DNA of 59,448 nucleotides, counting the filler, from Jimgerdemannia flammicorona (lineage: Eukaryota): assembly GCA_003990765.1 (NCBI GenBank). It is 3 parts of 3 records of this genome, joined end to end, with 100 filler letters (N's around TTAATTAATTAA, not from the genome) between each part and the next. Parts side by side here need not be neighbours in the genome. Positions count along the whole stretch, not along the records: positions 1 to 19,751 come from RBNJ01001858.1; 2 more parts are not named here. One strand, written 5' to 3'. The position numbers and the translations under genes were made by a program. The stretch's first letter is position 1, and every line of letters starts with the position of its first letter. Of this stretch, positions 1-40,240 are shown piece after piece. The notes beneath the pieces are model-generated. The model was not told the DNA's origin. It saw nothing but the letters and a program-made list of their open reading frames with translations, and ran no database searches.

Positions 1-57
1 TTTTTGTGTTTTTTTTTTTTTTTTTTAAAGTCACTTAGACTTCACTCTATTATATAC
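1..57 (-). mobile_element. Very short 3' tail of LINE-A (poly(A) plus ~30 nt), inserted in LINE-B RT
   Basis: Poly-T at 1-26 is followed by AAAGTCACTTAGACTTC, which matches the LINE-A tail ATAGTCACTTGGACTC at ~3630. LINE-B RT sequence resumes at 58. Confidence 0.6.
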
Positions 58-3000
58 CTGCTGGAGGTCCAGAAAGACATGGCAGCTCCACCCCTTAGCC
101 CAAGTCTTGTACAAAAGCAAGATATAAGAAAAAGATAAGAAGTGAGTTTGGAAGCCACCTTAGCAGTGCCACATTTCTGTCAGGCCACATCGGCTCTTGA
201 TGTAACCTTCCAAGCACTACTCAAAGAGCCCACAAAACATTTTGGTAAGAGTGATAGGGCGAAATCTATCAATTGTCCAAGATTCCTCCTTCTTGGTGAC
301 TGGAGTGATGATGGCACAGTTCTAGTAGTAGAGAGTGAGCTCCCAAACCACACACATCTGGAAGAAGAAGGACAAGACTTTGAATAGACTACAGGGAGCA
401 TCCTTCTTGCCCACCATCACCCAAAGGATCTGACATACAAGGAGTCAGCCCCACAGGTCTTCAAGAGAGGGTAGCTGTGGATAGCTATCTAAACTATAGG
501 TTGGTTGAACCAAAACTATAGCCCAAGAGTACTCACACTGAGGGGAAAGACATCCTCAGAGTCATTGAGGTAGAGGGAAGCATTTAGCTGGCTAAAGATA
601 GTGGTAAAGTGAGCAACTACATTGATGAACATCAAGATAGTAGGGGAGCAAGATTGAAGAGGAGCAGGGGGGGTGGAGTGATATGCTCACTTAAAACCAT
701 AAATAGCATCACAGACTGAAGATGCACTGTGAAGGAGATCCCACTAAGGGAGCAGTACTGCTCTGATTTCTCTTGCATCATATGAGCCAAGAATGTTCTC
801 ACAGACTGACTGTAGACCAGAGGTCAAAAGGGTATCAAGAGAATTCACAAACTGCTGATAATCCTCCACAGAGTAAAAGCTAGTGATATGGTCTTGAATA
901 GAGTAGATGGACTTGACAATGATATCACAAATAATATCTGCTGATTCCCATAGGTGAGCTTGAGTGACCAGATGTGTCAGATATCTTGTAGAGTAATGTC
1001 TGACATCAGCCAAGGCAGCAACCGGCAAGGAGGAGAAGGAAAAGAAAATAGTGAGAAGGGTGGGATAGTTAGTAGCAACAGGGGGAGTAGTGTAAGTGAG
1101 AGATGTGTGGAGGGATACAGTGGCAAATACATGGCCAATATATGTAGATCCAGTTACCAGAGTCAGATAGTTCAATGACCACATCATCAAGGAGGTATTG
1201 ACAACATCCATCCAATTACAAGGACCAAAGTTGATGTCACCAAGGCAGGTACTGAAGCAGGTATTGATGTTACTGATCAGAAGGGCCTAACCTGGAAAGA
1301 GACCAGATACAAGATTATGGAAACCAGTAATAGAAAGAGAGGGGGTGGTGTAAACCGTAACCAATGTCAAGCTCTGGAATATGAACCAGATATAGAAGGG
1401 GTTAGTGGAGGACCTGGAAATAAGGGGGGCGAAATGGTTTGATATGAGGACTATAAGACTACCATTCTGGTAGCTGATGATCCTGTATGATGCTGGAGGG
1501 GAGAATATGTAAAGGAGTGGAGAGGGACATAGCAGGATATGCCACATTTCATATATGAAAAGAACCTCAAGGGTAGGACCAATCAACCAACTGAGCACAT
1601 TGAACTTATCCTGAGTTAGTCTGTATACATTGAGGAACCTGACTCTCATTGCATTAGCGCCAATAGTATGAGAAGCACCTGAAGAGGAAGCTTCAGCTTC
1701 CAAATCCATTATCATCTCCATGGTCATAGCCACTATACCACCTGTCTTTGAGCAGGGCCAGCCAATGGGGGGGCAAGGGAGGGGAGAGTGAGACTGAGTC
1801 CTATGGTCTATGTCTTATAGAAGGTCTGTACATCAGACCTCTTCACAGTAGCTTCGCCAGCCAACTGCTGGACCTGAGCATAGAAGGATTGAAGTACCTG
1901 TGCTTTCATGGCCTCAGAGGTGTTCTTATTACAGTGGAGTATAGGGTCTCAGGCCATTAGTACCAAAAACCCAAGCACCTTTATCTTCTCTTGGAATACT
2001 GTGATATAATCAGAGTAGAGAAGGAATTCAATGGTCAATGTCAAGACATATGATATATTGAGAACCTTTGACAACATCATATAGACATTATACAGGTTTT
2101 TCTGGATTTGCTCAATCTTCAGATGGGCAAATCTGTTGACATAAATATGCTGCAGCCAAGCACCTCTTTCAGTCAGTGACAAATGAGAGATTGGCTTATA
2201 AGTCATATGCAAAAGAGTAGTGGTGATGGCAGCTCTTTCCATCTCGATGTAGGCCTGGGTTCTATCCTTGATAGAAACCTTCTTAGCAGTGGCAGTATAT
2301 GATTTAGGGGAGACAGGTATCAAAGCAGGGGCTGAAGATGGACTAGTGGTACTAGGTCCCACAGGTATAGCCTGGGGCACTGACTTGGGGGCCTTGGCTT
2401 TGCTCTTTTTAGGGGGTGTGGCTTTAGAAGTCAGTGGCACTGCTGTGAGAGTTACCTCCTTTGGCAGCACACCAGACTGCAATGCAGCAGCTTTAGCAGT
2501 CCACTTATCTGCTCACTTCTGGGCCTTTAACTATGTGTTCATGGCAGGATCAGTAGGGGGGGGCCAAGGACTTAGAGGGGGTGGATATGGAAGGAGTAGT
2601 AGGGGTACTATCTGAAGGAGCACCAGATAATAAGGGGGTGGTGGGTGCTGAGCATGCAGCAAGCTGTACCATTAGCTGAGTATTGATCTTTGTCAGTTCT
2701 GCCACTTAAGTCAGCAGATCTGAGAACTGCTTTCTCATTATAGCCATCTCCATAACTAGATCGAGGTCAGTTGAGGGGCCCACACGACTGGCAGTCAGGG
2801 TCATTCCCAAACTAATATTTGGGTGACCATGCTTGTTCTGATTGAGGGGCAGGGGTATGAGAGAGAAGAGCAGATACTAGGCATCATAGTCCGAATTGGA
2901 AGAGATTATGATCTCTTCATCATCTTCTGTATATTGCAGAGAAGATAAATACACTAATATTGGTCTGTATCTCTATATGACCTATACATTACCATATGGC

Positions 3001-3709
3001 TGCCCTTGCAGAAGCCAAGAGAAAAAAGACTGACACTGTGACATTCAGTATAGTAGAGAGAGGCACCGAAGTACAGACAGCCCCTTTCTTCACTATCTTA
3101 CTAGTCATAAGATTTGGTAAGTAATCTTCTGAGTCCCCTTTCCCCTATTATTACCCTCTCTATCTCAGGTTGGTTTGCTGTTCCAACATAGACATAGTAG
3201 GAGGAGAGTAATGGTGTTGAGTTACCCCTTTATTGGTGTCAGATTGGTGTCTTCTCCACTTTTTCATGATTTCTGGTATCTTTGGCTGTATCTAGAGTAC
3301 ATCTGTTTTGGTGCGGCACCTTCTTCCTTTTGCCATTGCCAATATAGTGTTGTCTCAGTATATCTTAGACTATGACCGACCTTGGGCATCAAGTGCTCAG
3401 TATAGATTATCTACAAGTCCTCAGTGCCTATGGTGGGGCCCTCTGGCTTTGGCAAGCTTCTCGGTGAGTATGGTTCTAGCATAGGTGACTGCTTTTCAGG
3501 TGAAGGAGAGATGACTGTCATAGATAGGAGGATGGGCAATAACGGTGAACCAGTAGAGTACCAGGCTAGGGGTGGTTATCAGAGCTGGAGCAGGTGCTAC
3601 TTCAGTTTTTTTTTTTTTTTTTTTTTTTTATAGTCACTTGGACTCTGTTCCTTTATTAATACCCCTCTATCTCATATAAATACAGTGATCCCACCCCCTA
3701 TCTGATCCC

Positions 3710-6700
3710 CCTAGGGGGGCCATCCCCTCCTATTCCTTCCCAATGAAAGACTACTTTGTCTAACACCATCGCCACCCTCCCACCACTCTACTCATAGATC
3801 TTTACCATCAAACTGTGATGCCAACCCCCTTGAGGACTCTAACCCACCCACCATCCAGTCTGCAGATCCCCAAACAGCCCCTCCCACCTTAGTACCTTCT
3901 CTCATAGCCCCAACTACTACCCCTCCTCAAATACAAAAAACCAATATCCTGCCAGTCCCACCCATACTACTAATACCCACCCTACATTGAGCTAACTATC
4001 CCCCACACCACCCACAAGCTGAGATCTCAAGTCCACCCAGTGATCCCCCTCTCCACCCAGCCTCCTCTCCACACCCAGTCTATCACCTATTTCAGCCCAA
4101 AATTCCCCTAAAACCTCACACTCTCCCAGCCAATGTTCTGGCATCTGTACATGACCCTCAGCTCACCCAATATCATAACACTCCTCACAGTCGAATTGTC
4201 CACCCTCGACCAAATGCGCCATATGGAAATTCAGCATGACATTCCTCAACAATATTCTCCACCATACCACCCAGTACTTGGGAGAAAGCTACCTCCATAC
4301 CTCTGCACTCTAAAATCAGATACCTGTCTAGTCCAACTCCTTACTGATCTCTGCCACCTGTCAGCCACTCAGCCAAAGATCCTAGCCAAGTCACTACTGA
4401 TACTCCACTCTCTCCCCAATATCGAACATAGCCAGTGAAGCACCCCCCAGGAGCAGTCTATCTCAATACTACATATTAGGCCCCCACACTGCCTCCCCCT
4501 CATTGCCTTACCAGTGCAGGCCAATTCGGTGTACTCTATCAGCCACTCTCCACCAAAAGCCCTTGAACTGCAGCCTCTGAATTTCATTCAATTCCACCAA
4601 AGAGAGCAGATCGCCAGAGGACCCTCGAGGGGATGTTCGCATCTCTCACACCTTCTGTAGCAGAGGCACCCAACCTCCTCCCTGCAGTTCTACTGCTCTC
4701 TTCAACCACTAAGCTCGCAAGTAGTACAGCCTCTTAGGGAAGTCCACCAGGCCAAGACCTCCTCTGACTACTGGTCTTGCAAGAGTATCCCAACTGACCT
4801 GGGACCTCCTCCCCACCCAAATCCAATCTCTAGCCACCTTCATCAGCTTCTTCACCATCCACGCTGGAAAGTTGAGGTGATATGCCACATACCATAGCTT
4901 GGGGAACTAATATATATTCAGGATTGATACCTGTCTTGCTAGAGAGATATGGCAGCCTCTCCAATCTCAAAGGGCCTCCCCCCAAATATTCACTCTAGTC
5001 TTGCACCATACTCGTGGTAAGACAGAACCATATACAGAGAGGAAGATGCTCAGATACCGCACCACTTTACCAGTAGAAACAATTGTTCTAATGACGTCCC
5101 CACCCACTAACCCATTCCCTAGCACAATTGTCTCACACTTATGCCAGTTGAGCTTCACCTCCAAGTGAGCCTCATACCATTCCACAGTCTCCTGAAGTGC
5201 CTCTACATCTGCCACAGACCCAAGGCCAATTACCATATCATCAGCAAAGGCTCCCATCTTCTACACTATACTATATATAGAGAGCCCTGCCATCTTCCGG
5301 CGAATCCTATCTATCAACGGCTCCAGCAAAAGGGCATAGAGAATAGAGGACAGAGGGTCCCCCTGAGGAACTCCTCTTCCCAAGGGAAATGCCCTCCCAT
5401 GATGACCATTACACATCAGAGCTGCCTGACTACCATCCAGCAGACTCAACATAGAGGCCCTAAATCTTGTGGGTATACCAATTCGGTCTAATACCTTGCC
5501 CAGCCACACCCGCCATATATGGTCGTAGGCCTTCTCCTGGTCTAAAAAGACCAACCTTCCATCCAGTTCTTAGGGAAGTTCACCAGGCCAAGACCTCCTC
5601 TGACTACTGGTCTCGCAAGAGTATCCCAACTGACCTGAGACCTCCTCCCCACCCAAATCCAATCTCTAGCCACCTTTATCAGCTTCTTCACCACCCACGC
5701 TGGAAAGTTGAGGTGATATGCCACATACCACAGCTTGGGGAACTAATATATATTCAGGATTGATACCCATCTTGCTAGAGAGATATGGTGGCCTCTCCAA
5801 TCTCAAAGGGCCTCCCCCCAAATATTCACTCTAGTCTCGCACTACACTCATGGCAAGACAGGACCATATACAGAGAGGAAGATACTCAGATACCACACCA
5901 CCTCACCAGTAGAGACAATTGTTCTAATGATGTCCCCACCCACTAACCCATTCCCTAGCACTATTGTCTCACACTTATACCAGTTGAGCTTCACCTCCGA
6001 GTGAGCCTCATACCATTCCACAGTCTCCTGAAGTGCCTCTACATCTGCCACAGACCCAAGGCCAACCACTATATCATCAGCAAAGCCCCCCACCTTCTAC
6101 ACTATACCATATATAGAGAGCCCTACCACCTTCCGGCGAATCCTATCCATCAACAGCTCCAGTGAATGGGAATAGAGAATAGAGGACAGAGGGTCCCCCT
6201 GAGGAACTCCTCTTCCCAAGGGAAATGCCCTCCCATAGTGACCATTACACATCAGAGCTGCCTGACTACTATCCAGCAGACTCAACATAGAGGCCCTAAA
6301 TCTTATGAGCATACCAATTCGGTCCAATACCTTGCCCAGCCACACCCACCATACACGGTCGTAGGCCTTCTCCTGGTCTGAAAAGACCAACCTTCCATCC
6401 AGTCCACAGGCCCAGGCCCCTTCAATGATACCATGAACCCAGGCAGTCCCATCTCTAATAAGTCTGCCCCCAACAAAGCCCTGCTGCTCCTCTCCCAGTA
6501 CCTGTTGGGCAACTTTCTGCAGCCTTGCAACAATTACCTTAGTCACCATCTTCCTGTCTATATCCAGAAGCATGATCAGTCTCCAGTTCTTTCAGTCTTC
6601 CCTCCTCCTCTTGTCTTTATACAATAAGGCCAACAGCTCTAGATCCTGCTCTCCAACCCACTCACTGCTCTGAAGGACATGATCATAGAGAGCAGTCATC

Positions 6701-8191
6701 TCACTCACTACTCTGGGGACATTTACCATCTTCTTCCAGAAGTCCCATGGCAATCCATTCTCCCCTGGCACTATCCTAAGTTTAGTTGCTGCCAGGATAC
6801 TCTGGATCTCCTCTCCCTGCACCAGTAAGACCAAGTCTCCCAGACCAGCTACTTGTGGTGGCTCTCACTCTTCAAGTGTATCTGCAATCCCTGTCTCATC
6901 AGCACCCTCTTCTCCCTCACTCCGCAAACCCTGCCATCTCTCCTTCAGAACCCCTAAGATTCATTGTGTATCGTGTACCATATCCCCATCATCATCCAGG
7001 ACCCCATCCCATCGATGTCACACCCTCCTAGCTTTGAGAAGTCTTGATAGGTACTGAGTAGGTTGCTCCTCCTCATTAAGCTCGTGCCACTATAGCCTGG
7101 CAGCCATACTCCACATTCAAGCCTCCTCCTCTTCCCTCAATACCTGTTGTAGTTCCACTATCTCCAATTTCGCCCTCCCTATCCTCCAATCCTCTACCTC
7201 AACAATAGTGAGCAAATCTGCCTACTCTATTTGTAGTCTCCTTAGCCTGCTAGAAGTACACCTCATGCACCTCCTCCTCTACCTCTCGGCCTCTCTACCA
7301 GCCCCTCTCCAATAAACCCTCGTAGCCTCTTTCAATCTTATCCAGTGGACAGCCACAGGTAAACCCTCACACCTCCAGACCAAAACTTTTGCCTGAATGT
7401 CCTTCTCCCATAATTCTCACAACCTCTTCTCAGCCAGCAGGAAGGAGTTAAGGCACCAATATCTTGGTCCATCTCTACTTCCCCCAAACTGCCCCTGCTC
7501 CAACAGTCCCCAGTGATCAGACCATGGGCACCACTCCACTTCCAATGTCTTCCTAACATCCGAACCCCAGCACTCCACTGTCAGAATCCATTCAATCCTT
7601 GTGCCCAAGCCATTCATCCAATGTTTGTAAACCCTGGCATCACCCCACCTCGTTCTGCCATATCCCTCATAGAGTTCAATGTCTCTACCTTCTCCCATGC
7701 ATCCAGACCTCCACTTCTACCCCTGGTACTCCTCCCTCCATCAGTTCTGTTCAGACGCTGATCCTGAACCATATTGAAGTCCCCACCGAGAACATCGACC
7801 CATTCCTCCAAGAGAATACCCTCCTCCAGCAGTCCCCTAATCCATGCAGTCCTCTTACCCCTAACTGCAGGGCAGTAGCAAGAGCCCACCTTCACCGATT
7901 CCCACCCTGGTCGATGCCACTCTCCCAGACCAAGTGATCACCCCAGCTCCTGATACCCCCCAAGTCTCCTCAGCCCCTCCTCACCAGAATTGCTATCTTT
8001 CCAAACCAAGCAGTAGCCCTACCCCATTCCCTAGTCCACTCAACCCGATCATCCTTATCCTCACACTGAACATCCTATAGTAAAAAGAGATCAGCCTCCA
8101 ATCCCTTGGGCCAAGTAAAAATGTTCTTATACTGCCCAGAGCCCCTTAACCCTTTTGCATTTAAGGAGAAAATGTTAGTTGTACTGTTCAT
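3710..8191 (-). pseudogene. LINE-A ORF2: AP endonuclease, reverse transcriptase and C-terminal Cys-rich region, with stops and frameshifts
   Basis: APE motifs NIFSLNAKGLRG, GGDFN, RIEWIL, SDH. RT motifs QQGFVGGRLIRD, DQEKAYDRV, GVPQGDPLSS, FADD. The 3' boundary is approximate. Confidence 0.9.
4732..6403 (-). repeat. Internal tandem duplication of the RT core (2 x 836 bp)
   Basis: 4732-5567 and 5568-6403 are near-identical. Both encode DQEKAYD...QGDPLS...FADD. Confidence 0.9.
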
Positions 8192-8204
8192 AAAGAATAA
8201 GGTT

Positions 8205-10188
8205 ATATTATGGCCCCATCCTCTACAAGTCTGCATTCTGCACCTCCTGCACCAAGTCTAAGTTACATTCAGCAGCTAGTTCCCTCTCTCCAGCTTCCCT
8301 TGCTGCCAATACTCTGAGAAGTTCTACCATCACCCCATCTTCATACTCCTCAAAGTCCTCCTAATACTCCAGACAGACCTCCTGCCAGAGCCTCTGGCCA
8401 TGACACTCTGCCCAACAGTATGTCGCCCGCTCACCAGCAACCACCCCCAATTCTGCCTTCCTCACCTTGTCAACCTCATATCCCTTCTCCTCTAGGAAAA
8501 TTGCCAAAATCTCCACCTTCAGCACCTCCACTATTCCATCACTGTACAGAATCCATGCCCAATGCTCCTCAGGCATTGCCCACAGGTCTACTTCCCCCAA
8601 AGCCTCTGCTATAAGATTATCCATCACCTTATGCATCCACAACAAGTTCCCCACCTCCTTCCTTTCTGGAGTTCCTAGCCACCCTGCATCCAACATCATA
8701 GTATCCACTCCAATGCTGACAGCCTCATCCCACTCCTCCTCAGGGACATCCACCAGCTCCTCCTTGCCAACTGCCATCACCTGACCCCCTTGCGCTACAT
8801 CAGGGATCCCAAAGCACACCTGCTAGGCCCCCTGCATCTGTGTATCCTCCATCGTCCCTCTCTTCCCAACTAGGCCCCTCCTGATAAGTGTAGTGGTAGT
8901 GGCATCCAACTCTAGCTCCCACACTTCGAAGATACCATCAGCAAATGGGTTCTTATTCAGCATCTTCTCAGCCTCTGCCTCCTTTGCCTCCATCTCCTCT
9001 CCTCCATTACTAGTCCAGACACTGTCCTTAACGCCTCTGGACTCTCTAGCTCCAACTGACTTCTTCTCTACCCCTCCTGTCATACTGGCCAATAGCTCCC
9101 TCTGTCTCTTGCATCCCTGGGCCCACTCTCACTGCTTCTTATCCATATGGATATACTTCCCATCCACCACCTCCAGATGCATCGACTCCTCATACAGTTT
9201 TCAGGCCTTTGCCCTCCTCTCCACAGCACCACCCAACTCCTCCAGTGCCTCCAACAAGTTCTCTTCCTCCTCTTCACTCTCTTTCAGCCTCAATACCTTG
9301 CAGACAACAGCCCCCCACATCAGCACCAAAGGCCAGTCACTCGTTTTCCCTGTGGCCTCCTTGCCTGCCAGCTGAATTCTGACATTGACATCACCTGTCC
9401 TGATTGTGGTCCTCTCCTACACCTGAAAGCCTATGTGCACCACATCACCGTACTCTACCATCACCTCCTCCACCCTCTTCCTAGTCTCCTCCTTAGTCAC
9501 CATGGATACCCCACTCACCAGAAGCTGCACCACCCTGGAGTCTCACCTCAAGCACATACCATGGGTACCACCACCTCTCAACCCACTACTCCAGTCCTCA
9601 GGGCTTCATCCACTAGGCCCGCTTGCTCAAAACCCACCTCAACCCCCTCCAAGCCCTTCAAGAACTTCACTGAGGCTGCCCCTACCACCTGCTTTGAAAT
9701 CAGCCCCAGAACCATCCTCGCTGTCACTACCAAGCCCTGGAAGCACAAGGTGACCACAAACTCCAAAATCGACTTCTTGAGCAATAGGGCCACTGCCAGT
9801 CCCATTACACCATCCGCCAGGTCCCCCTTCCACATTGAGAACCCCTGCCCCACCTGGCCATCAGCCATTACATCTCTTTTTTTTTCCTGATTCACCATCA
9901 CACCACCATCAGCAGTCCTGCCACTACCCCCAGCAGCTGCTCCACTTCCACCACCTCTCCCTGGTGTAGGCCCAGCTCCCACAGCAGCTCCATCCTTCTG
10001 CTTCCCCTTCCCTCCTGTCTGACTGCTGCGGGATCCCGTTGGCCAATCCCCAGTCCTCAGTATGTCCGCAAAGCTCCTTCCCTGCTGCCCTCCAGCCTCC
10101 CCACCAGTGCCACCTCTACTATCCGAGCTGCCCTGCCCACTTGAGCTGCTGAAAGACCCTATCCCCAATCCATACCCTCTCCCAACAT
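8205..10188 (-). pseudogene. LINE-A ORF1 (gag-like), fragmented
   Basis: A chain of minus-strand ORF fragments (9578-10168, 8823-9092, 8361-8819) lies between the 5' UTR and ORF2. No diagnostic domain recognised. Confidence 0.65.
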
Positions 10189-12618
10189 GCTGCCAGTTTA
10201 AGGCCCCAGATCCACCTGACCTAGTATGTACATTGACTTACTTGCTAGATGATATCTCCTTAATATCTTTCTCCAATAAATGATTTGAAAGTATGTTGTA
10301 AAGTATGTGTAATATGAATTGTAGTAGAGAGAGATACATGGTGCTACTTCAGTCAGACCGTTTGATTGGTACAGTGTGGTTAGGTGGTAGGTATCACTCT
10401 CAGCTTCTTTTGGTAGATTGGTAGGTTGGGCCCCAGTCATCAGGTGGGGTCAGGAGGCCTGAGACTACCCATTTCAGGCATCTTAGCTGTACTCAACTAG
10501 AACTGGGAGCTGAAACAGCAATATGATCGAGGCCTGCAGGCTTGAGTAGTGAAGTATTTGGGGTCTCCTCCTATCTCATATGTAAGTCCTTTACTCACCT
10601 CAACTGGGAGAATCAGGCCCTACCTATCATATTGTACTTTGATGAGAATTTTTCTTTGCCTATTATTCTCTTTGGTGTGGCAAAGGCTAATCTATTTGGC
10701 TTGAGTATAGCATTGTACATATGTTGAGTTCTCAGACATATACTTTCAGTTGTTAGTATTGATTGGGTATCTCCTGGTGGTAGAGAGAGCATAGTGTACA
10801 GAATGAGGTGTAGGCTGCCATAGGTCCTGCTGCTCCTAGTATGGTCAAGCTGCTGAACAATAGCTAGCTTAGATTAATAGGAGGGCAGTGCTTGATGGGT
10901 AGTGGGGGAGGGTTTTGGCCTATATAGTCTAGGTTCTCTTCTAATAAAAATCTGCAGGACATTGAGTCCATTTAAAAAAAAAAAAAAAAAAAAAGAGGCA
11001 CCAAAGCACACAAAGAGGCCGGTGGCATTGCTGTCATTACCGACAATGGAGGAGATGGCTGACAATACTGAAATAGGTGAAGGTATACTTGTTTATTTAG
11101 TGGAAATTGTAAAATGCAGGCTATGTGACCTTTGTTTATGCAATGAAAAAATAATGAAAAAGAGGGGTATTTATACCTGATAGGAGGTTTAGCTAATCAA
11201 AGTGACTGCTTTCTTAATTTGGAATATCTTCAGGCCATAAAGCTAAGTCTAGCCAAAAGGGAAAATAACATAAGTGTTCTAGGGCTAGGCTTTAAGTAAG
11301 AATTTATTTATTGTAGAGTAGATAAGATATATTGGAGCAATAAACAGCAAAGACTCCTAAGATGAGAAAAGAAAAGCAGTTAAGGAAAAGTAGTCCAGCT
11401 TGTCATGAGACAAGGATGGCTTAGCTCGGCTAAGATATAAAAAGCAAAACAAGGCCAGCAAAGTAAACAACTAGCTAAGAAGTATAAGACAAGACCAGAG
11501 AGATGACCACCCTATAGGTGGGCTGGATAAAACCATTTTGTCATAGCTGTAAAGATAATAAATACAGAAAGCAAAAAAGAGAAAACTAATAGAAATATAT
11601 AAATATCTTATACCAACTACAGAAACAATATTAACACCTAAATACCAAATGACTAATATGAGATGTATAACTCAATATACTCTCAATAACAAAGAAACCA
11701 ACTGAGGTAAATGGGAGGAAAGAAAGGAATAAAGAAAATGTGCAATTACTCGATCATCCAAGTATCTTTGTAATCTCAGCCAGACAAAACCCAACTATAA
11801 GATGGCAATCAGAATTTCACATAGTGTCAATAGTATGGTAGGCTATTCCATGAAGAGCTTGAAGAGGGTAGGCATAAAGTTCTTCCCACTATTCATAACT
11901 GATAAACCAATCGAGTTATTCATCATAATTAAAATTATCTTAGAAAGTAGAGTAGGAACTGTCCAGAAGATAGCACTTGAGGAGATGGCCATGATGAAAC
12001 TTATCTCTACAGAGGCAGGGGTGGGGCTGGCCAAAGTAGCCATAATGCCAGGTGAGGGCAGAGTGCATAAGTCTAGTAGAGAAGGAGAGGATACAATTAG
12101 CTCTCCAGAACTGCAAGTGGCCTTTGGGAGTAATATACTGAACGAGCACCTGGAAGGAGAAGTCTCATTCCTGGAGCAGCTAGTCCTGGAGAATTGACTG
12201 GAGGAAGGAGCAGAGCAAGCAGGTCTTATGGACCTGGAGACAGAGGTCTAGTACCAGTCCAGGAAGTCAAGCCAAGAGGCCCAATGCCAGAACTTATCAA
12301 TAATAGAACCTGGGGGACACATGATGAGAGAGCTGATAGGATTGTTGCCAGACTTGCTACACCAATCCAGGTGGGCTTGGAACATGCAGCAGAGGTCTGA
12401 CATATGATGAAGGAAGAAAGAGAGGCTGAGAATCAAACTGCCAAGCAAGGGACAGCTAGAAAATCCAACTACTCAAGCAATGGCCTCATCAAAGACCTGC
12501 TTAGGATGCTTCAATACCTGAAGCCCTATAGTAGTAGCCAGGCAGGAGGCTTATAGAAGAGGAAGGCCATACTCTAGCTGGGGCCTGATGAATGTTTGTA
12601 CTATCACCAGCTTGGGCA

Positions 12619-13402
12619 TTTTTTTTTTTTTTTTTTTTTTTTTTATAGTTCCTTGGACTCTATCCTTTATTAATACACTATTATACCTATCTATCTCATG
12701 TAAATACAATGAGCCCTCCTCCTATTCTATCCCCCTGAGAGGGGCCCCCCCCTCTACCCCAACTCTCTGAAAGGCCACTCTATCTAATACTATCTCCACC
12801 CTCCCCCTTCTCTGTTCACAGATCCTTTCTATCAGACCATGACGTCACCCACCTTGAGGACTCCAATCCACCTATCAACTAGTCAGCAGATCCCACATCA
12901 ACTCCTTCTACCATACCACCTTCTTCTGTAGACCCAACTGCCACCCATCCTCGAACACAAAAAGCCAATGACTAGTCAGTCCCATCCACACTGCTAACAC
13001 CTACCCTACAGTAAGCTAACTATTGTCCATACTACTCACTAGCTAAGATCTCAAGTCCTCCCAGTGGCCTCACACACCTGCTGGTCTTCTCTTTATATCT
13101 AGCCTGTTCCCTACTTCTACCCAAAAATTCTCCAAAACCTCACACTCCCCAGCTAATATTCAGGTATCTGAACAAATCCCACTACTTGCCCTACATTATA
13201 ATACTCCTCACAATCGAAATGGCCATCCTCTATCAGATGCCCAGTACAGAAAGCATTCTCCACCATACCACCCAGAACTTGGAAGGAAGCCACCTCTATA
13301 CCTCAGTACTCTATGACTAAACACCTGCCCAGTCCTATTCCTTACCAATCTCTACCTCCTACCAGCCACTTGGTCAAAGATTCAGGCCAAGACTCTGCTG
13401 AT
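12619..13402 (-). mobile_element. 5'-truncated LINE-A-family copy
   Basis: Poly-T at 12619-12644; homologous to 3630-4400. Degenerate TSD ACCAGCTTGGGCA / ACCAGCTTGACCA. LINE-B reading frame rejoins across the insert. Confidence 0.85.
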
Positions 13403-16181
13403 ACCAGCTTGACCATTGGTGACCAGAGGAGACTGGAAACAGCAGAACTCAAGAGTTTGCTCTGTCTTTGCCACATTCTGTAATACCAGACTGATAAAGT
13501 CAAATCCTTTGTTAGTGTATAGTATGCCCAGATATATATAGGAGGGGGGTCGCAGGCAGGGCTTACCTCCAATCTATACAGTACAGTCAGCAGAGCCAAC
13601 ATAACTGCATTTCTTGGAGTTGAGCTCCATATCATTCACCAAGAGCTAATTCTCACAGAAGTCAATCATCTTCTGCCCTTTTGTAGTAGTACAGGGGTTG
13701 AGGGCAATATTATTAGTAAAGAAGAGTTTGAGAGGGAAGTTGTACTCCTTAAACTGTTTATCAAGGAGGTGGCAAGAGGGTCAATAAAGACATCAAAGAG
13801 CCAGGGAGAGAGGAGAGAGCCTTGTAAGAGACCACACTCAGTAGAGACTGAAGGAATGACGAGGCCATTGACAACCACTTAATAAGAACAGTAATTGAAC
13901 AGGCTTCAAATAATGCTAAGGAGGGCTATATCAGTACCTTGCACCTCAAGTTGGGAATGAATGAGCTTGAGAGAGACTCTGTCATAAGCCTGCTGGAGGT
14001 CAAGAAAGACATGGCAGCCCCACCCCTTATCCCAAGTCTCATATAAAAGCAAGACATGAGAAAGGGATAAGAAGTGAGTTCAGAAGCCATCTTGGCTGTG
14101 TGAGATTTCTGTCAGGCTACTTTGGCTCTAGACATAATCTTCCAAATATCACTTAAAGAGTCAACAAAACATTTTAGTAAGAGTGATGAGACAAAATCCA
14201 TCAATTGTCCAAGATTCCTCCTTCTTGAGAACTGGAGTGATGATGGCAGAGTTCCGGTGGTAAGAAGTGAGTCCCCAAACCATACATATCTAGAAGAAGA
14301 ACTACAAGGCTTTAGATAGACTATAGAGAGCATCTTACTTGCCTGCCATCATCTAAAGGATCCAGATATGTAAGGAGTCAGCCCCACAGACCTTTGAGAG
14401 GGGGTAGCTACAGATAGCCCTCCAAACTACAGATTGGTTAAATCAAGACTATAGCCTAAGAGCACCCACACTAAAAGAGAAGATGTGCTCAGAGTCATCA
14501 AGGCAGAGAGAGGCATTCGGTTAGCTGAAGATAGTAGTGAAGTGAGCAACCATATTATCAAAAACCAAAACAGTAAGAGAGTGAGATTGAAGGAGAGTAG
14601 GGGGGATAGAGTAGTATGCATACTTAAAATTATAAATAGCATCAGAGACCAAGGATGTACTATGAAGAAGATCCTGCCAAGAGAGTAGTACTGCCCTGAT
14701 TACTCTTGTCACATAGGAGCCAAGAATGTCCTTATAGACAGACTGTAGACCAGAGGTCAAAAGAGCATCAAGAGAATCTATGAACTACTGGAAATCTTGC
14801 ACAGAGCAAAAGCCTGCAACATGGTCTCGAATAGAGTAGATAGACCTGATAACAGTATTGCAAACAATATCTGCTGATTCCTGAAGGTAGGCTTGAATGA
14901 CCAGATCAGTCAGGTATTTCACAGAGTAATATCAGATGCCAGCTAAGGCAGCAACTGGTGAGAGGGAGAAGAGAAAGGAGATGGTAAGGTGGGAGGAGTA
15001 GTCAGTAGCAACAGGGGGAGTAGTGTATGTGAGGGACGTATGGAGAGATAGAGTGGCAAACGCGTAATCAATACATGTAGATCCAGCCACTGAGGTCAGG
15101 TGGTTCAATGACTATGTCATCAAGGAGATATCAATGATGTCCATCTGATCTCAAGGACAAGAATTAATATCACTAAGGCAGGCACCAAAGTAGGTATTGA
15201 TGTCACTGATCAGGAGGGCCTTGTCTGAGAAGGGACTAGATACAAGATTATAGAAACCACCAATGGGAAGAGAGAGGGGGGCATAAACCCCAACCAATGC
15301 CAAGCTCTGGAATTTGAGCTGGATATGAAAGTAGTCAGTAGACCTGAAAATGAGGGGGGCAAAATGGTTTGATATGAGAACCATGAGGCCACCATTCTGG
15401 TGACCAATAACTCTGTTTGATGCCAGTGTAAAGGACATGTAAAGGAGTAGAGAGGGACACAGTAGAATGGGCTATATTTTACATATGAAAAGAATGTTGA
15501 GAGCAGGACCAATCAACCAACTGAGTACATTGAACTTGTCCTAAGTTAGTTTATATACATTGAGGAACCTGACTCTTATTGTGGACTGGGTGTATTAGCA
15601 CTAATAGTGTGGGAAGTATCTGAGGAGAAAGTCTTGGCTTCCAAATTTATTGCCATCTCCCCAGTTATGGCCACAGTACCACTTGCCTTTAAAGCAGAGC
15701 CAGCCGACAGGAGGGCAAGAGAGGAGAGAGCAAGGCAGGGTTCTACAGCCCATGCCTTATAGAAGGTCTACACCTTAGGCCTCTTCACAGTGGCTTCATC
15801 AGCCAACTACTAGACCTAGGTATAGAAGAATTGGAGTATCCATACCTTCATAGCCTCTATGGCATTCTTGTTGTGGGGGAGCACAGGGTCTAAGGCCATA
15901 CTGAGAACTCAAGCACCTTCATCTTCTTTGGGAATACCATGATATAATCAGGGTGAAGCAGAAATTTGATAGTTGACACTAAGATATTCAATATGTTAAG
16001 AACTTTTGACAATATTATATAGACATTATACAAGTTCTTCTGGATCTGTCTGATCTTCAGATGGGCAAACCAATTAATATAAATATACTGCAGCTGAGTG
16101 CCTCTTTCAGTTAGTGATAAATAAGAGGTCAGCTTATGAGTCATATATGAAAGAGCAGTGGTAGTAGCAGCTCTTTCTGTC

Positions 16182-17220
16182 ACTGCAGAAGATATGGGAG
16201 AGGCGGACATCACCTAGAGGCATGTCTGGGGATCTTCTTTCATTAGTTGGACTTCAGAACACTGCGCAACTGAGATATAAAGGCTTCTGGTGGGGTATAG
16301 CTGAGGGGGCACACCGCATTGGTATTCACTGACAAGGGGATGAAGGGGAGAGGGCTTGGGGCCCAGCGATGTGGAGATGGGATGGCATTCTTCTGGGAGG
16401 CATGCCTTTACTAGAGTTCGACATTAGTGATGGCATCGAATGCCAAAGGGGACCAGGTCAGGATCTATAGCCTAGTGGTTGGTAAAGAGTTAGAATTGGT
16501 GAGGAGTGGGATTGGCAGGGGGTTTGGACCTGGAGTGCCACAGTGAAAAATTGGATGCCACCGAAGTACTGGATAGTCTGGTGGCGTGTGCTGAGGAGGA
16601 ATATGATACTTAACTTCTGCTCAGGACACCTTGTTGTCAGGGGCTGCTTTGACTGCGAGGAGTGCCATAATGTAGAGCAGGAAGGGGGATTGATACAGAT
16701 GCCAGAACATTGGCTAGGGGATTGTGAGGTGTTGAGAGACTTTTGGCAGAACATTAGGAACCGCTTGGGGGTGAGGTGTAGGGGTGATGATGTACGGGGG
16801 AGGTGGGAGGATCTGAGGGATTGATTGATAGGAGGGGTAGGGGATGAGTGGATTATGTCAGGCTGGGCGTTGGCTATTTGGGTGGGGCTGGCCGGCCACT
16901 GGCTATTTGTATTTGAGGAGGAGAAGCGACCGAGCTTGAGGAGCCGGTTAGCAAGGTGGCAGTTCCTGATAGAGGATACCTTAACAGGCTGGTGGCTTGG
17001 TTGGGGGCTGCAGGGGGGTCAGCGGTACTGCTTGGTGTTGAAAATCTGTGGTCTGAGTGGTGGGAGAGTTGGAGTTGTTGGCGAGAGGGTGGTCTTTATA
17101 TGTGAAGAGGTGGGGTGGGGCCCCCTGATGGGGATTGGTTAATGGGTGGTAATATTGTATAATTATTTATAGACTGGTAATAAAGATGGAGTCCAAGGGA
17201 CTATAAAAAAAAAAAAAAAA
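16182..17220 (+). mobile_element. 5'-truncated LINE-A-related copy (diverged subfamily)
   Basis: Perfect 17-bp TSD TAGCAGCTCTTTCTGTC (16165-16181, 17221-17237). Poly(A) ends at 17220. Encodes the ORF2 C-terminus (FDCEECHNVEQ...EHWLGDCEV). Confidence 0.9.
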
Positions 17221-18342
17221 TAGCAGCTCTTTCTGTCTCAGAGTAGATCTGAGTCCTATTCTTGATAGAAAGCTTCTTGGTAGTAGCAGAATATAATTTG
17301 GTGCAGGCAGAGGCTGAAGCAGGGGATGAAGATGGACTGGCAGTACTGGTTCCTACCAGTATATCTGAGATACAGGTCCAGGGGCCTTAGCTTCACTCTT
17401 TTTAGAGGGTGTGGCTTTGGCAGCTGGGGGCACTACTGTGGAAGTTGCCTCCTTTGGTAGCACACCAGACTGTGATGTAGCATCTTTAGCAGCCCACTTG
17501 TCTGCTTGCTTCTGAGCCTTCAACTGCATATTCATGGCAGGACCAGTAGGAGGGGGGGCTGAGGACTTAGGGAGTGCAGATATGGAAGAGGCAGCAGGGA
17601 TACTCACTGAAAGAGCACCAGATGATGAGGGAGCAGTAGGTACTGAATGTGCAGTAAGCTGTTCCATTAGCTAGATATTGATCTTAGTTAGTTCAGTCAC
17701 TTGGATCAGTAGATCAGAGATCTGCTTCCTCATTATAGCCATCTCCATGACCAGATCAGGGTTGGCTGAGGGACCCACATAACTGGCAGTTGGGGTCATA
17801 CTCAAACTAGTGTTCAGGTGACCATACTTGTTCTGATTGAGAGGTGGGGACATAGAAGAGGAGGGTGGGTACTGTGTATTATAGTCTAAATAGGAAGAGA
17901 TTGCAATCTCTTCATCATCTTTCACATTGTGCAGAGAAGATAAGTATGCCAATATTGGTTATGCATTCTCACATGACCTGCACATCTCTGTAAGGCTACC
18001 CTCACTAAAGCTGAAGAAGAGAATACTGATACTGTGACATTCAGTATAGTAGAGAGAGATGCTAAAGTATACAAAGAGATAGGTAGCATTGCCATCATCA
18101 CTGATGATTGAGGAGGTAGCCAATATTGCTGGAATAGACAAAGTATATTTGTTTGTATTTGTTGTGAAATTGTGAAATGTAGGTCTCATGATCTTTGTTT
18201 TTGTAATAAAAAAAATAATATAGTAAGAATATTTACACCCAATGAGAGACTTAGCTAATCAAAGTGGCTGCTTTCTTAATTGGAAATAGCTTCGGGACAT
18301 AAAGCAAGTCTAGCCAAATGGGAAATCACAGGGTAGCTTGGA

Positions 18343-18490
18343 TTAGGGTTAGGGTTAGGGTGAGTGGCTTGGGTTTGGGTTAGGGTGAGTGGCTTGGGTT
18401 TGGGTTAGGGTGAGTGGCTTGGGTTTGGGTTAGGGTGAGTGGCTTGGGTTTGGGTTATGGTGAGTGGCTTGGGTTTGGGTTAAGGTTAGG
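18343..18490 (+). repeat. Telomere-type repeat tract: (TTAGGG)3 followed by five 25-bp units TGAGTGGCTTGGGTTTGGGTTAGGG
   Basis: Read directly. Units start at 18361, 18386, 18411, 18436 and 18461. Confidence 0.95.
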
Positions 18491-18564
18491 CTTCAAGTAA
18501 GGATTTATTCATTGTAGAGAAGATAAGATATATCAGAGCAATAAATAATAAAGACTTCTAAGAT
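18491..18564 (-). mobile_element. Probable 3' terminal fragment of a third LINE-B copy
   Basis: Matches 11290-11363 and includes the minus-strand AATAAA. Confidence 0.6.
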
Positions 18565-18575
18565 ACATAGTTCTG

Positions 18576-19751
18576 TGCCTCTTTCTCTACTACTTTACCA
18601 GTCATAATGGTTTGATAAGCAATCTTTCAAGTCCTCTTTCCACAATTATTACCTACTCTACCTTGGGTTGGTTTGCTGTACCTATTGCAGGGCAGTGAGA
18701 GGGAGGCAATGGTGATGAGTTATCCCTTTATCAATATTAGATCAGTGTCTTTTCTACTTTTTTATAATTTTTGATATCTTTGGCTATATCTGGAGTATAT
18801 CTATTTTAGTGCAGCGCCTTCTTCCTTTTACTGTTGCTAACAAGGTATTGTCTTAGTATATCTCGGGCTATGTAGAGAGTCGGCCAACCTTGGACATTAA
18901 GTGCTCAGTATAGGTTATATACAAGTCCTCGGTATCTGTGGTTTAGCCCTCTGGCTTTGGCAAGCTTCCTGGCACATATGGTTCTGACATAGGTGACTGC
19001 TTTTTGGGTATTGCCAGGATGGGAGGGGAGATGGCTGTCACAGATAGAAGGATGGGCAATAACAGTGGACCAGTAGGATGCTAGGTTGGAGGAAGTCATT
19101 GAGGCTAGGGCAGGTGCTGCTTCGGTAGTGCCTTTTAATTGGTGTGGTATAGTTAGGTTGCAGGACTCACTCTCAGCTTCTTTTGGCAAGTTGGCTGGTT
19201 AGGCCCCAGTCATCAGGGGGGGTCAGGAGACCTGAGGCTATCCATTTCAGGCATCTTGGCTATGCTCAACTAGAACTGGAAGCTGATATGACAATCTGAT
19301 CAAGGTCTGTAGGCTTGAGTAGTGGAGTATTAGGGGTCTCCTCTCACCTCATATGTAAGTTCTTTACCCACCTTGACTGGGAGAACGAGGCCCTACCCAT
19401 CATGTTGTACTTTGATGAGAGTTTTTCTTTGTCTGTCATTCTCTTTGGGGTGGCAGTGGCTATTCTATTCAGCTTGAGTATGGTCTTATATATATGTTGG
19501 ATTCTCAGGTATATGCTTTCAGTCATTGGTGTATGGTTGGATTTCTCCTAGTAGTAGGGAGAGCATGGTGTGTAGAATGAGTTTTAGGCCAATATAGACC
19601 CTGCTGTACATAGCATAGTTGAGCTGCTGGATAATAGCTAGCCTAGGTTAATGGGGGGGCAGTGCTTGGTGAGTGGTGGGGGAGGGTTTTGGCCTATATA
19701 GTCTAGGTTCCCTTCTAATAAAAATCTGTGAGACATTGAGTCTGTTAAAAA
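18576..19751 (+). mobile_element. SINE-like retroposon copy 2; the contig ends in its A tail
   Basis: Full-length homology to the reverse complement of 51701-52879. Confidence 0.85.
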
Positions 19752-19851
19752 NNNNNNNNNNNNNNNNNNNNNNNNNNNNNNNNNNNNNNNNNNNNTTAAT
19801 TAATTAANNNNNNNNNNNNNNNNNNNNNNNNNNNNNNNNNNNNNNNNNNNN
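19752..19851. other. Artificial contig spacer
   Basis: N44-TTAATTAATTAA-N44, which puts stops in all six frames. Confidence 0.97.
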
Positions 19852-27813: not shown

Positions 27814-30800
27814 ATGAACAATCTCCACAACAACTACCCTGACTATAAGAGTTACCTCTGCAAGAATTCAAGATAAGATAGAAATGCATCCCCCCACATT
27901 CTATGAATATACTACTGAAGAGTCAATCCTGACCTTCATTGAAGACTTTGAACAATTCACCATCATATGAGCCCTTGGTGTAGATACACAATTGGCCCTT
28001 CTACTAGTCAGCCTCAGAGGACCTGCCAGAGACAAGTTCAATGCAGCCACTATTGCTAATAATGGCACAGTCAAACTTGCCAACATGAAGGCCTTTCTTA
28101 GAACAACATACTATACTGAAGAGATCAAACAAGCTCTTAAGGATCAACTCAATACTATCTGCCAGAGACTTAGTGAAGATTCCAACTCATTCTATATCCA
28201 AATCTGCCACCAGATTGTCTTGGCTAGCTATGATGATGCTCTCAAGGAACAAATAGCAGATTCAACCTTTCTCAAAAGAGTTTACTCTGAAATTGCCCTA
28301 GCAATCTAGTCTACCCCAGCTATACTGATCCTTGATCAGAAAGTGGTCTTTGTATAGAGATATTGGACTGTCAGACACTCTGTCAAACACTCAATGGAGA
28401 AAATAACTGGCATCAAGATAGAACCATCAAAGCCAATCAGTATTATACCCACTACAGTTGTAAGCAGATAACTAACTCCACCTACCCCCAAGATAGCCAA
28501 AGCTGACCCAGTGGAGGAACTTTCCAAGCAGTTCGCCAAGATGACTGCACACCTTGGTAATATTGTTAGAGAAGTCCAAAGCACTAACAAGAGATCAGTG
28601 CAGAGATTTGCAGCTGCTACAGAAGAATACAATATTATATGCTTCAGATGTAGAGAAGAAGACCACTATGCAAAGAATTGTATGACTGAAATGAGATGCA
28701 AGGCCCAACCAAGCAATGCTAGCAGAACCAGAGAACAAACCAATGTAGTAGTCATTAAGTAGATTGGTGACACTGATGATGAAAAATACTATAAGGAGCT
28801 TGAATTCTACCCTACTACTGAAGGTACCAGAACCCAGTCCAAGCCCTATGATAAGAAGAGCAACAGCAAGCCAGTTGGAAGACCAAAGAAGACCCCAGCT
28901 ATCACTATTCAAAGCAAGACTCAACCCAAGGAGATTGATCAAGACATAGAGTTAGATGAAGTTGTACAAGACCAAGATCCATCAGTATAATATCTACAAA
29001 AACCTCAAGAAACAGAAGATCAATACTACTTTTGGACAGCTAGCTGAAGTCCCTGCCTTTAAACAGCAGTTGAGAGTAGGACTTGCAACTACTGCCAAGA
29101 ATCAAGAGTACAAGATTGTAGAAGCTCACAATGCACAGGAAGAATTCGAAAACTCAGATAAAGAATCTGAAGATCAGCGCAAGACATCAGCCTATACCCT
29201 ATGTCAGATCAAAGACTGTATCTTTGATACCATCATTGATACTGGTGCTGGAGGATACCTTATGAGCAAGAAGGCAATTGACTGCCTAGGTTGGGATATT
29301 GAAGAGTCTATCAAAATGGTCTATATTACAGCAGATGGTATATGAGCTATTCTTCTTGGCAAAATCTGAGAAGTCTCCATCAAGATAAGAGGAACTACCA
29401 TCCCAGTAGACATGATTGTTACAAGTGTCACCAACTATGACATCCTCATTGGCAACCAATAGCTTCACAAGGCCAAGGCCATTATTGATCTCAATGCCCA
29501 GAAGATGCAGATCAACTATAGAGGAAGAAAGGTATGAGTCTCTATTAATGTCCATAAAGGAGTTCTATCAGACATGGAGGAAGGAGATGAGGTCTTTATG
29601 CTTGGTGAACAAGAACAAGAGCAAGACATCTAAGCTCACAGATAAGCAGTAGTACAACAAGATCATTGATGGCTATGTCTCTCAAGGAAGATGCCCTCAT
29701 GGTACTAGGATGTACTGCTCTGAACATCTGAATAACTACTGGTTCTATATCAGTAAAGTCAGAAAAATCCACCAATAGAAATATGAGCAAGAAGCCACCA
29801 AAACAAAGAGGAAAGCTGAAGAAGATGACCAGCCCCCAGAACTTCAAGCTGATAGTGATGATGAGGAGGAATAAGAACCAGATATCACTATCAAAGTCAA
29901 GAAGTTCCACCCCAAAGTCAAGATCCCAGAATACAAGACTGAAGGAGCTATAGGAATGGACCTTGCCAGCATTCAAGATGCTACCCTCAAACCACAGATC
30001 ACCACCCTACTTGGTACTGGAATTGGAGTCAAGCTGCTAGAGAACTATGTCGGAATTATCAAGACTAGGAGTAGTCTGGCCAAAAGTGAAATCTCAGTTG
30101 AAGGAGGAGTAATTGACCCTGATTACACTGGTGAGATCTTCCTTATAGTCAGAAATCACAACCCCACTACCCCATTTGAAGTCAAGAAGCATGACAGGAT
30201 TGGCCAGATGCTGATCCACGAAATTAAGAAGCCCAAGATCACTGAAGCCATTGAACTCATCAAGATCAAGAGAGGAGAACAAGGCTTTAGATGTACAGGA
30301 AGAGGAGCCTATACTGCCATCAAGATTACTAAACTTGAGCACAAGAAAGACAAGGATCAGAACAAGTATACATATATCATTGGAGAAACTTTCCTCTAGA
30401 AGAACAACTTCTCAAGATTCTATATCAGAATGAAGGAGTACTTACTACAGACTTCAGGGATATCCACAATAAAGAACCCAAGTACTATCATGAAGTTGAC
30501 ATGGCAATACCAAGCCCATCTACCAGAAGCCAGACCTATATCTCTTATCTACAGAGAATGGCTGTGAGCAGAACTCAAGGAAATGGAAGAAGTCAGAATT
30601 ATCAAGCAAGCTATCAGTCCCTGGACTTTACCCATTGTCCTTGCCCCAAAGAAAGGAAGCAAGCCTGGAGAGTTTGTGCTAAGACTCTACATTAACTACA
30701 GAAAGCTCAATGCCATTATCAAGAAGGATAGGCAGCTCTTGTCAAATATTCAAGAAATCCTTACCACCCTTGGAAGTGAAGCCAAATACTACACAACCTT

Positions 30801-39600: not shown

Positions 39601-39700
39601 NNNNNNNNNNNNNNNNNNNNNNNNNNNNNNNNNNNNNNNNNNNNTTAATTAATTAANNNNNNNNNNNNNNNNNNNNNNNNNNNNNNNNNNNNNNNNNNNN
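39601..39700. other. Artificial contig spacer
   Basis: Identical N44-TTAATTAATTAA-N44 structure. Confidence 0.97.
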
Positions 39701-40240
39701 TCGAACACCTCAGCCTCCGTAACCTGCTTGTTGGCAAGCGTCTCCGCGATGTGATATTCTACAACGAAATCGTCTGGCGCCGATCTTTCTTCGTCGACGA
39801 GTCCTGGAGTAAGCTGTCCGAGCGCTCGTGGGCTATACGCGAGCAGGATCATTGGTTTCGAGTTGCCAAATCCTCTCGGAGGTGGTGTTCACCTGTCCGC
39901 CGAGTTGTGCTTGACGATACGTGGGTGATGACGGACTCCGCTGAGTTCCTTCTGCGACGATATCTGGCTCTCAGGAACTATCCATCCAAAACCCCAGGTT
40001 TTTGTCCGTGGAGGCCATCTCCGACATTCTAAGTAAGCTGACGAATGAGCGAGCCGCAATCGGAAGCCCGCCCTATCGCTTGACAAAGTCATTTACAGGA
40101 ACGCTGAACGTGACGGGGGAGACGCTCAAGGGGCTAACGGGCGACGCGAGGCACAAAATTGACTTTTACAAACAAATGCGTTCCACCACCCTTCCGAACG
40201 AACCGAGGCCGTGTGCATATTGCAGCGGCGACGATCGGTG
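39701..40240 (+). pseudogene. Possible F-box/LRR-like gene fragment with a frameshift near 39972
   Basis: LRNLLVGKRLRDVIFYNEIVWR resembles an F-box end. VRRVVLDDTWV, then (frame-shifted) ELSIQNPRFLSVEAISDIL, look LRR-like. The region is CpG-rich like the neighbouring genes. Confidence 0.35.

Follow-up and report, generated by a model that had tools for sequence, protein, structure and literature searches.

TRAS and SART, R1-clade elements of insects (Bombyx and others), are found in long (TTAGG)n arrays and have poly(A) at their 3′ junction, the sense strand being the telomeric C-strand in TRAS and the G-strand in SART. Here we analyze LINE-B, a long interspersed nuclear element (LINE) of the type without long terminal repeats (non-LTR), three copies of which stand head to tail on the minus strand of a 59,448-nt stretch of DNA from Jimgerdemannia flammicorona (GenBank assembly GCA_003990765.1); this whole stretch is called the window. 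By homology, LINE-B is an apurinic/apyrimidinic endonuclease (APE)-type LINE. It resembles TRAS1 and SART1 in combining this endonuclease type with a tie to telomeric repeats in a fixed orientation; its sense strand corresponds to the C-strand, as in TRAS, and that of two distant relatives (loci L036 and L037) to the G-strand, as in SART. The LINE-B clade differs from TRAS/SART in lacking poly(A), in having only 1.5–4.5 telomeric units and in its hosts, which are fungal or uncultured microbial eukaryotes.

MoTeR1/2, FoTeR and Cnl1 are fungal elements that form head-to-tail arrays with short telomeric or telomere-like tracts, comparable to those of the window and of two related loci, L002 and L010. 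Part of PMC8381367 describes MoTeR copies separated by short telomere tracts and telomere-like variants such as CCCAAA and, at the 5′ ends of MoTeR, variant repeats of telomere-like type; the latter parallel a 25-nt minisatellite of the window. Cnl1 forms subtelomeric arrays according to a portion of bioRxiv 10.1101/2021.08.11.455996, and sections of PMC12857005 report tandem repeats near the 5′ ends in the MoTeR/FoTeR/Cnl1 group, its clustering with CRE/SLACS and its C-terminal restriction-like endonuclease. In the LINE-B clade, by contrast, the endonuclease is an N-terminal APE. At their 3′ end, Athena and Coprina bear the telomeric repeat in reverse-complement form, which suggests priming on G-rich 3′ ends. 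LINE-B and 11 of 22 relatives share this kind of 3′ terminus with them, but Athena and Coprina lack an endonuclease and their reverse transcriptase (RT) is of Penelope type, whereas the LINE-B relatives have an APE and a LINE-type RT. In function, LINE-B is closest to TRAS/SART, in host and array layout to MoTeR, FoTeR and Cnl1, and in its 3′ terminus to the endonuclease-deficient Penelope-like elements. Zepp builds head-to-tail nests by inserting into the tails of older copies; the nesting is like that proposed for LINE-B, but the Zepp tail is poly(A) and that of LINE-B a telomeric repeat. Parts of PMC10088271 mention telomeric repeats embedded in Athena and name Zepp (Chlorella), GilM/GilT (Giardia; grouping with CRE) and Tx1-1_ACar (anole) as telomere-associated LINEs outside insects, none being reported in those parts to carry a telomeric repeat instead of poly(A). 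According to an excerpt of a 2015 paper (PMC4640811), target-specific families fall chiefly into the early-branched, Tx1 and R1 groups, those of APE-type LINEs chiefly into Tx1 and R1. A literature search that excluded Repbase Reports and several subscription papers turned up no paper on a fungal LINE of APE type with CCCTAA repeats at its end; the known fungal telomeric LINEs in the literature searched (MoTeR, FoTeR, Cnl1) all use a restriction-like endonuclease, and the APE-type LINE-B clade differs from them in this respect.

Read along the sense strand, the array consists of a copy 3 remnant (18491..18576), a 148-bp spacer, copy 2 (18342-11290), an 11-bp spacer and copy 1/0, which starts at 11278 and, after an interruption, continues from 3080 as copy 0. 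At junction A (11279..11289, minus strand), the 3′ end of copy 2, ...AATAAATTCTTACTTAAAG (G at 11290), is followed by CCTAGCCCTAG (11289-11279), i.e. two degenerate telomeric C-strand units, and then by the 5′ region of copy 1/0. At junction B (18343..18490, minus strand), the 3′ end of the copy 3 remnant, ...AATAAATCCTTACTTGAAG (G at 18491), is followed by a CCCTAA-type tract (18490-18343) and then by this 5′ region again. Identity is 87% across 70 nt between the two 3′ ends (11363-11294 vs 18564-18495) and 89% across 76 nt between the 5′ regions after the joints (11264-11189 vs 18325-18251), the AATAAA-to-repeat spacing is 13 nt at both joints, and no further copy of either the 3′ end or the 5′ region was found elsewhere in the window. 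Both LINE-B 3′ ends present (2/2) are seen to run into telomere-type units and then into a LINE-B 5′ region, and copy 2 is flanked on both sides by short telomere-type tracts of C-strand sense (148 bp and 11 nt). Direct reading of the sequence revealed neither poly(A) nor a target-site duplication (TSD) at the two joints (11290, 18491). A preliminary description of this DNA had proposed that head-to-tail copies, sense on the C-rich strand, have telomere-type joints that lack poly(A) and TSD; both joints support this proposal, the junction coordinates and the minus-strand reading all check, and the observation is confirmed.

The two joints differ in their content. The tract of junction B is a telomere-like minisatellite with a 25-nt unit (CCCTAA, CCCAAA, CCCAAG, CCACTCA; 5.6 copies, 97% matches) that terminates in three perfect CCCTAA units adjoining the 5′ end of copy 2. 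The motif CCCTAACCCTAA, with at most one mismatch, occurs five times in the window, always within this tract (0.35 occurrences expected; 0/100 shuffles reach five). The minisatellite unit contains CCAAGCCACTC, which, as read by eye, matches the copy 2 5′ end CCAAGCTACCC (18341-18331) at 9 of 11 positions, so that the array looks like a repetition of telomere units together with the first ~11 nt of copy 2. As a motif, the 11-mer of junction A is at chance level (22 matches in the window with at most two mismatches vs 19.9 expected); its meaning comes solely from its position, precisely at the boundary of one 3′ end and the next 5′ end, and from relatives arranged in the same way.

A metagenome scan for relatives of LINE-B gave 80 loci (L-numbers), 22 of which retain the C-terminus of open reading frame (ORF) 2 on the contig. 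A (CCCTAA)2 12-mer, searched with at most one mismatch over the 520 nt downstream of ORF2, is present in sense orientation in 11/22 loci and in antisense orientation in 0/22, against a background of 18 clusters in 699,424 strand-bases elsewhere in all loci, or 0.013 per 520 nt. Since L012 and L014 are one locus from two records, the independent count is 10/21. In 10 of the 11 loci the AATAAA ends between −2 and 15 nt before the repeat, which is about 1.5–4.5 units long. The loci nearest to LINE-B by their RT (L001, L010, L003, L012/L014 and L009) all display this hallmark; L009, which reads GAATAAATTCCGTAAAG followed by (CCTAAC...), is very similar to the window, and L003 has the same motif after a longer 3′ untranslated region (UTR), its contig stopping within the repeat. 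Degenerate versions of the repeat are found in L002, L010 and L018, and the contigs of the two close relatives without the hallmark, L017 and L007, finish before the 3′ end. Nothing comparable to the repeat was seen in the stretch at hand of L019, L021, L025 and L034. Comparison of these termini suggests, as the best explanation, that genomic copies of the clade end in AATAAA, about 10 nt and 1.5–4.5 CCCTAA units, not in poly(A).

Head-to-tail joints recur among the relatives. In L002, both ends of the contig share an identical 123-nt stretch (unit of 5460 nt), and the joint consists of ...CCTTAAAG, CCTAAATAACCCTAAAGG and the 5′ region in this order. The first sequence of the L010 contig is a copy of its own 3′ end, AATAAAGCTCGTTAAT, after which come CCTAACCCT and the 5′ region, and its actual 3′ end has the same 16-mer followed by other sequence; since this 3′ end precedes a copy in one place and unrelated sequence in the other, the element boundary is fixed at the repeat. 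L036, a distant relative of the same family as L037, is a circularly permuted contig with identical 90-nt ends and a tandem unit of ~5267 nt. In this family the repeat is of the opposite, G-strand, type (L036 2842-2856; L037 5255-5272), with TTAGGGTTAGG after AAATAAAATCTTTACATCG, the 3′ end containing AATAAA.

Minisatellites flank many relatives (L001 1-240 and 5340-5804; L012/L014 after the repeat; the starts of L008, L009 and L033). CCTAACCCTAA units are embedded in several of them, such as the 118-nt repeats of the L001 5′ region and the 33-nt repeats of L012/L014, which are akin to the 25-nt array of the window; in L012/L014 this 33-nt minisatellite, with its embedded CCCTAA units, follows the 3′ repeat. 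Immediately before the L012 element lie 5.8S rRNA and the initial ~450 nt of large-subunit (LSU) rRNA (1676-1826, 2747-3189), the joint being ...AAAG, GTAACCCTAG; no rRNA match was found in the remainder of the locus. We considered L012 as a 5′-truncated copy and rejected this, as its ORF2 is complete: the element is intact, with an ORF1 of 629 aa and an ORF2 of 1135 aa. The rRNA joint could correspond to a truncated rDNA unit or to a template-switch chimera.

In the window copies, decay allows no domain to be called other than RT: among 17 stop-free ORF pieces of copy 2, Pfam returned only a weak RVT_1 match (E 0.017). An RT query made from window positions 13405-14400 (minus strand, stops replaced by X) matches the R2 (E 3.8e-6) and L1 ORF2p RTs, as well as 4370 library proteins at E ≤1e-3, the best of which are ~1000 aa long. 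A domain scan of the 12 top library matches found RVT_1 in all but one (11/12); Exo_endo_phos passes in 4/10 relatives of ~1000 aa. The first residues of the relatives' ORF2 (1-6) map to 15588-15585 in copy 2, whose ORF2 starts near 15588, and to 1655-1649 in copy 0, ORF1 tails of relatives mapping just upstream of ORF2 (2290-1781 in copy 1/0); the APE region of the window (15588-14900 and 1655-930) was located by alignment of relatives alone. In an alignment of 19 N-terminal domains from related loci, the catalytic-type residues N, E, Y, D, N, D and H are invariant. The AlphaFold model of the relatives' APE (pLDDT 89.1, pTM 0.83) has the APE fold, with the L1 endonuclease as best structural match, APE1 next and the TRAS1 endonuclease at rank 14 (E 3.1e-9). 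As regards a C-terminal restriction-like endonuclease, the relatives' ORF2 has nothing but a Cys/His motif at its C-terminus, no scan for motifs specific to that endonuclease having been made. More distant library matches carry Exo_endo_phos_2 and RNase H, which is at most a hint of a placement in the R1 clade, and an ESM Atlas search with the related protein P0011 returned only unnamed RT/endonuclease clusters. The APE-type assignment of the preliminary description is thus borne out by intact relatives with an N-terminal APE, conserved catalytic residues and an APE fold. Its designation of the element as fungal is plausible: the only two named relatives, both partial proteins, are from the fungi Calcarisporiella thermophila and Sporobolomyces ruberrimus.

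The absence of poly(A) and TSD at the LINE-B joints can be compared with the ends of other retroposons that interrupt the array, whose nested anatomy was resolved by self-comparison of the window and direct reading of element boundaries. Copy 1/0 comprises a 5′ terminal part (10995..11278, minus strand; 11003-11264 matches 18064-18325 at 76%) and a downstream part (1..3080, minus strand) that contains the remainder of the 5′ region, ORF1, APE and the RT start before running off the window start; it matches copy 2 at 77% (44-2239 vs 13976-16177; 2226-3062 vs 17220-18058). The preliminary description had recognised the first part, 11278-10995, as copy 1 but missed its continuation at 3080-1, beyond two nested insertions (3081..10994), namely an element C split by a full-length LINE-A. 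Full-length LINE-A (10339-3606, minus strand) ends in A24 (3629-3606), has a 13-nt TSD (CTGAAGTAGCACC at 10352-10340 and 3605-3593) and contains an RVT_1 domain (E 3.8e-16 at 6100-6591). The element C into which it inserted is a ~1.17-kb poly(A) retroposon of plus sense (3081-3605 and 10340-10994) with a TSD of ~21 nt, 16/21 matching (11015-10995 vs 3080-3060). Copy 2 is interrupted as well: its 5′ part (13403..18342, minus strand; 5′ region, ORF1, APE and RT of ORF2) and its 3′ part (11290..12618, minus strand; C-terminal ORF2, 3′UTR, AATAAA, terminal ...CTTACTTAAAG) are separated, within the RT region, by a 5′-truncated LINE-A fragment (12619..13402, minus strand) that matches the LINE-A 3′ end (3606-4403) at 74%, ends in A26 (12644-12619) and has a TSD of 9-13 nt (CAAGCTGGT at 13411-13403 and 12614-12606). 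The ORF2 of relatives reads across this fragment (P0011 residues 642-740 map to 13735-13445 and 755-862 to 12613-12308). A26 was considered as a LINE-B tail and rejected, since it belongs to the LINE-A fragment, with its own TSD; the preliminary description, whose statement on poly(A) is correct for the joints, overlooked this nested A-run. As LINE-A, its fragment and element C all have A-runs and TSDs, the lack of both in LINE-B is a trait of the family rather than a result of decay.

LINE-A is a separate non-LTR element with canonical ends and a G-rich sense strand (G 2439 vs C 960). Element C is present in three copies with constant 5′ ends and an A/T-run at one end: the copy that splits copy 1/0 (plus strand), a copy at 18577..19751 (plus strand) and a copy at 51700-52875 (minus strand), flanked by a perfect GGGAGTATTTATAC duplication; it is probably non-autonomous, SINE-like (a short interspersed nuclear element) or derived from a LINE tail. 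The second of these copies abuts the copy 3 remnant (minus strand; last 70-74 nt homologous to the copy 2 3′ end), cutting it upstream, and is itself followed by one of the two 100-N runs of the window (19752-19851; the other is at 39601-39701).

Copies 0 and 2 differ mainly by transitions (426/487 differences), and the CpG observed/expected ratio is 0.07-0.12 in the LINE-B pieces and 0.17 in LINE-A vs 1.04 in neighbouring genes (42000-47200); this pattern fits methylation-driven decay, or decay of the kind caused by repeat-induced point mutation, confined to repeats. C outnumbers G on the LINE-B sense strand (1355 vs 838), and with this GC skew the antisense strand is G-rich and has the polarity of the telomeric G-strand. 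A similar G-strand-like bias is reported for other telomeric retrotransposons in a section of PMC10088271.

We propose that LINE-B belongs to an APE-LINE clade with a telomeric C-strand 3′ terminus that is primed on TTAGGG-ending DNA and uses older copies as targets, a reading to which we assign a probability of roughly 0.6. The 3′ end of the RNA would be set by AAUAAA and CCCUAA units; the CCCUAA-type end would pair with a DNA 3′ end of TTAGGG type, either exposed by the endonuclease or already free, and reverse transcription would begin at the paired end. Such pairing would account for the C-rich strand always being sense, for the absence of poly(A) and ordinary TSD and for the variable number of units. 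With each insertion, a short tract of TTAGGG would remain at the 3′ end, which would make older copies preferred targets and let head-to-tail rows accumulate. While the array anatomy, the clade-wide hallmark and the relatives' APE fold described above are observed, priming by pairing, a preference of the endonuclease and self-targeting are our inference. The row in the window would later have been riddled with poly(A)-type retroposons and CpG-transition decay, one joint having expanded into the 25-nt minisatellite.

Several observations weigh against this proposal. The window offers two joints only, and both copies are dead; sequence searches of Pfam and PDB with its APE region (747-1814, copy 0) gave 0 matches. 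Among the relatives, head-to-tail structure is seen in only two close loci and one distant locus out of 80, 11 of the 22 loci with an ORF2 C-terminus lack the 12-mer (some having degenerate versions), and the very AT-rich L005 and L011 have A-rich ends. Moreover, when the sequence beyond the repeat was compared against all loci for 12 loci (L003 has none left), it matched no element 5′ region in 12/12, the matches being confined to self-repeats and to the identity of L012 with L014; self-targeting would thus be one outcome among others. In L020 (4176-4317), (CCCTAA)2.7 directly abuts coding-like sequence, AEEEAAEFLK...KPVVSFIAGLTAPPGRRMG, whose translation resembles succinyl-CoA ligase alpha; insertion at a gene is one possibility, and a chimera, whether a retrocopy or a contig, another. 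The preliminary description went further than these data in holding that the element inserts into or extends TTAGGG tracts: with repeats of ~1.5–4.5 units, mostly followed by sequence in which no element 5′ region was recognised, the repeat may be the element's own 3′ tail.

If the array instead arose by serial insertion or addition at a real telomere, with telomerase repeats between the copies, and was later internalised and eroded to 11 and 148 bp, then its orientation is as expected, since its 3′ ends face away from the 3′ direction of the G-strand. The perfect (CCCTAA)3 beside the copy 2 5′ end, as if telomerase had extended a new end, and the L003 contig stopping inside its repeat are also in keeping with such an origin, and MoTeR arrays are similar, with short tracts and CCCAAA/CCCGAA variants between copies (PMC8381367, in part). 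However, the G-rich strand is the plus strand, so the telomere would lie to the right, where ~40 kb of LTR elements and ordinary intron-containing genes are found, and no further telomere tract was detected in the window; in the relatives, moreover, there are ~2-4 units and the following sequence is mostly not recognised as an element. We therefore regard a true telomeric origin as unlikely. The gene stretch on that side (42109-47150) includes conserved ORFs at 42109-43082 and pieces of an M1 aminopeptidase (minus strand), for which the one named match is from Saitoella, at 41%. LTR-retrotransposon ORFs are located at 29875-32062 (plus strand) and 38796-39644 (minus strand), one with a dUTPase-like segment recognised by eye and others with RT/RNase H. 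The LTR ORFs and ordinary genes place the array in a gene-bearing region. The suggestion that the contig is a present subtelomere thus finds nothing to support it; a former subtelomere it may be.

Rather improbable, in our opinion, is that the repeat is a mere 3′ tail, carried by the element and indifferent to target, and that the row formed by end-to-end jumping of the RT between RNA templates within one insertion, or by later unequal recombination or tandem duplication. Many LINE clades do end in simple repeats produced by RT slippage, and the R2 RT jumps between templates. The short tails of variable length that precede sequence without element 5′ match in the relatives are what this explanation predicts, and the perfectly circularly permuted L002 contig is what one would expect of a young tandem array. 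But the joints of the window differ in length (11 vs 148 bp) and the 5′ starts differ over their first 14-17 nt, which argues against the simple duplication of one unit, and the exact telomeric motif is maintained across many divergent hosts, a sister lineage (L036/L037) having the opposite strand, a constancy difficult to understand if there were no functional tie to TTAGGG DNA.

Since a tandem array alone cannot fix unit boundaries, and since the tract has promoter-like motifs (CCAAT, TATAAATA) on its downstream side, the telomere-like tract could in principle be internal to the 5′ UTR, the copies abutting with true ends near 18564/11363, as the preliminary description had envisaged as a refutation of its own scheme. 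We consider this very improbable, as it is contradicted by the relatives, in which ORF2, 3′UTR, AATAAA and repeat are followed by sequence without a match to an element 5′ region (L012/L014, L020, L033, L016 and the L010 3′ end, the latter also preceding a copy). Endonuclease-independent terminal addition, in which, as for Athena/Coprina or HeT-A, the RNA would anneal to a G-overhang without a nick, has a precedent in the endonuclease-deficient Penelope-like elements that carry C-strand repeats at their 3′ end, but is hardly credible given that the APE of the relatives is intact and confidently folded, with invariant catalytic-type residues indicating an endonuclease in use, that the best RT matches are LINE RTs and that the relatives' copies lie at non-terminal sites.

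The most interesting outcome is the clade-wide AATAAA-(CCCTAA)n terminus that emerged from the comparative analysis. We tentatively suggest, at somewhat less than even odds, that it marks a widespread and essentially undescribed clade of APE-LINEs, in fungi and other microbial eukaryotes, in which a telomeric C-strand repeat replaces poly(A) and any DNA ending in TTAGGG can serve as primer. If so, the primer would be a nick in the tail of an older copy, an interstitial telomere tract, a break under repair or a natural chromosome end, and the outcome would be self-seeding arrays, scattered interstitial telomeric sequences and, possibly, extended chromosome ends. This would constitute a third independent route to telomere-linked retrotransposition, besides those of R1-clade TRAS/SART and CRE-type MoTeR/Cnl1, and the clade would offer a simple test system for how a LINE RNA selects the primer of its 3′ end. 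Telomere-linked retrotransposons serve as the chief models of how selfish RTs and chromosome-end maintenance exchange functions; the telomere-linked lifestyle would have arisen again on a different enzymatic chassis, with a conserved AATAAA-(CCCTAA)n terminus, in many uncultured hosts.

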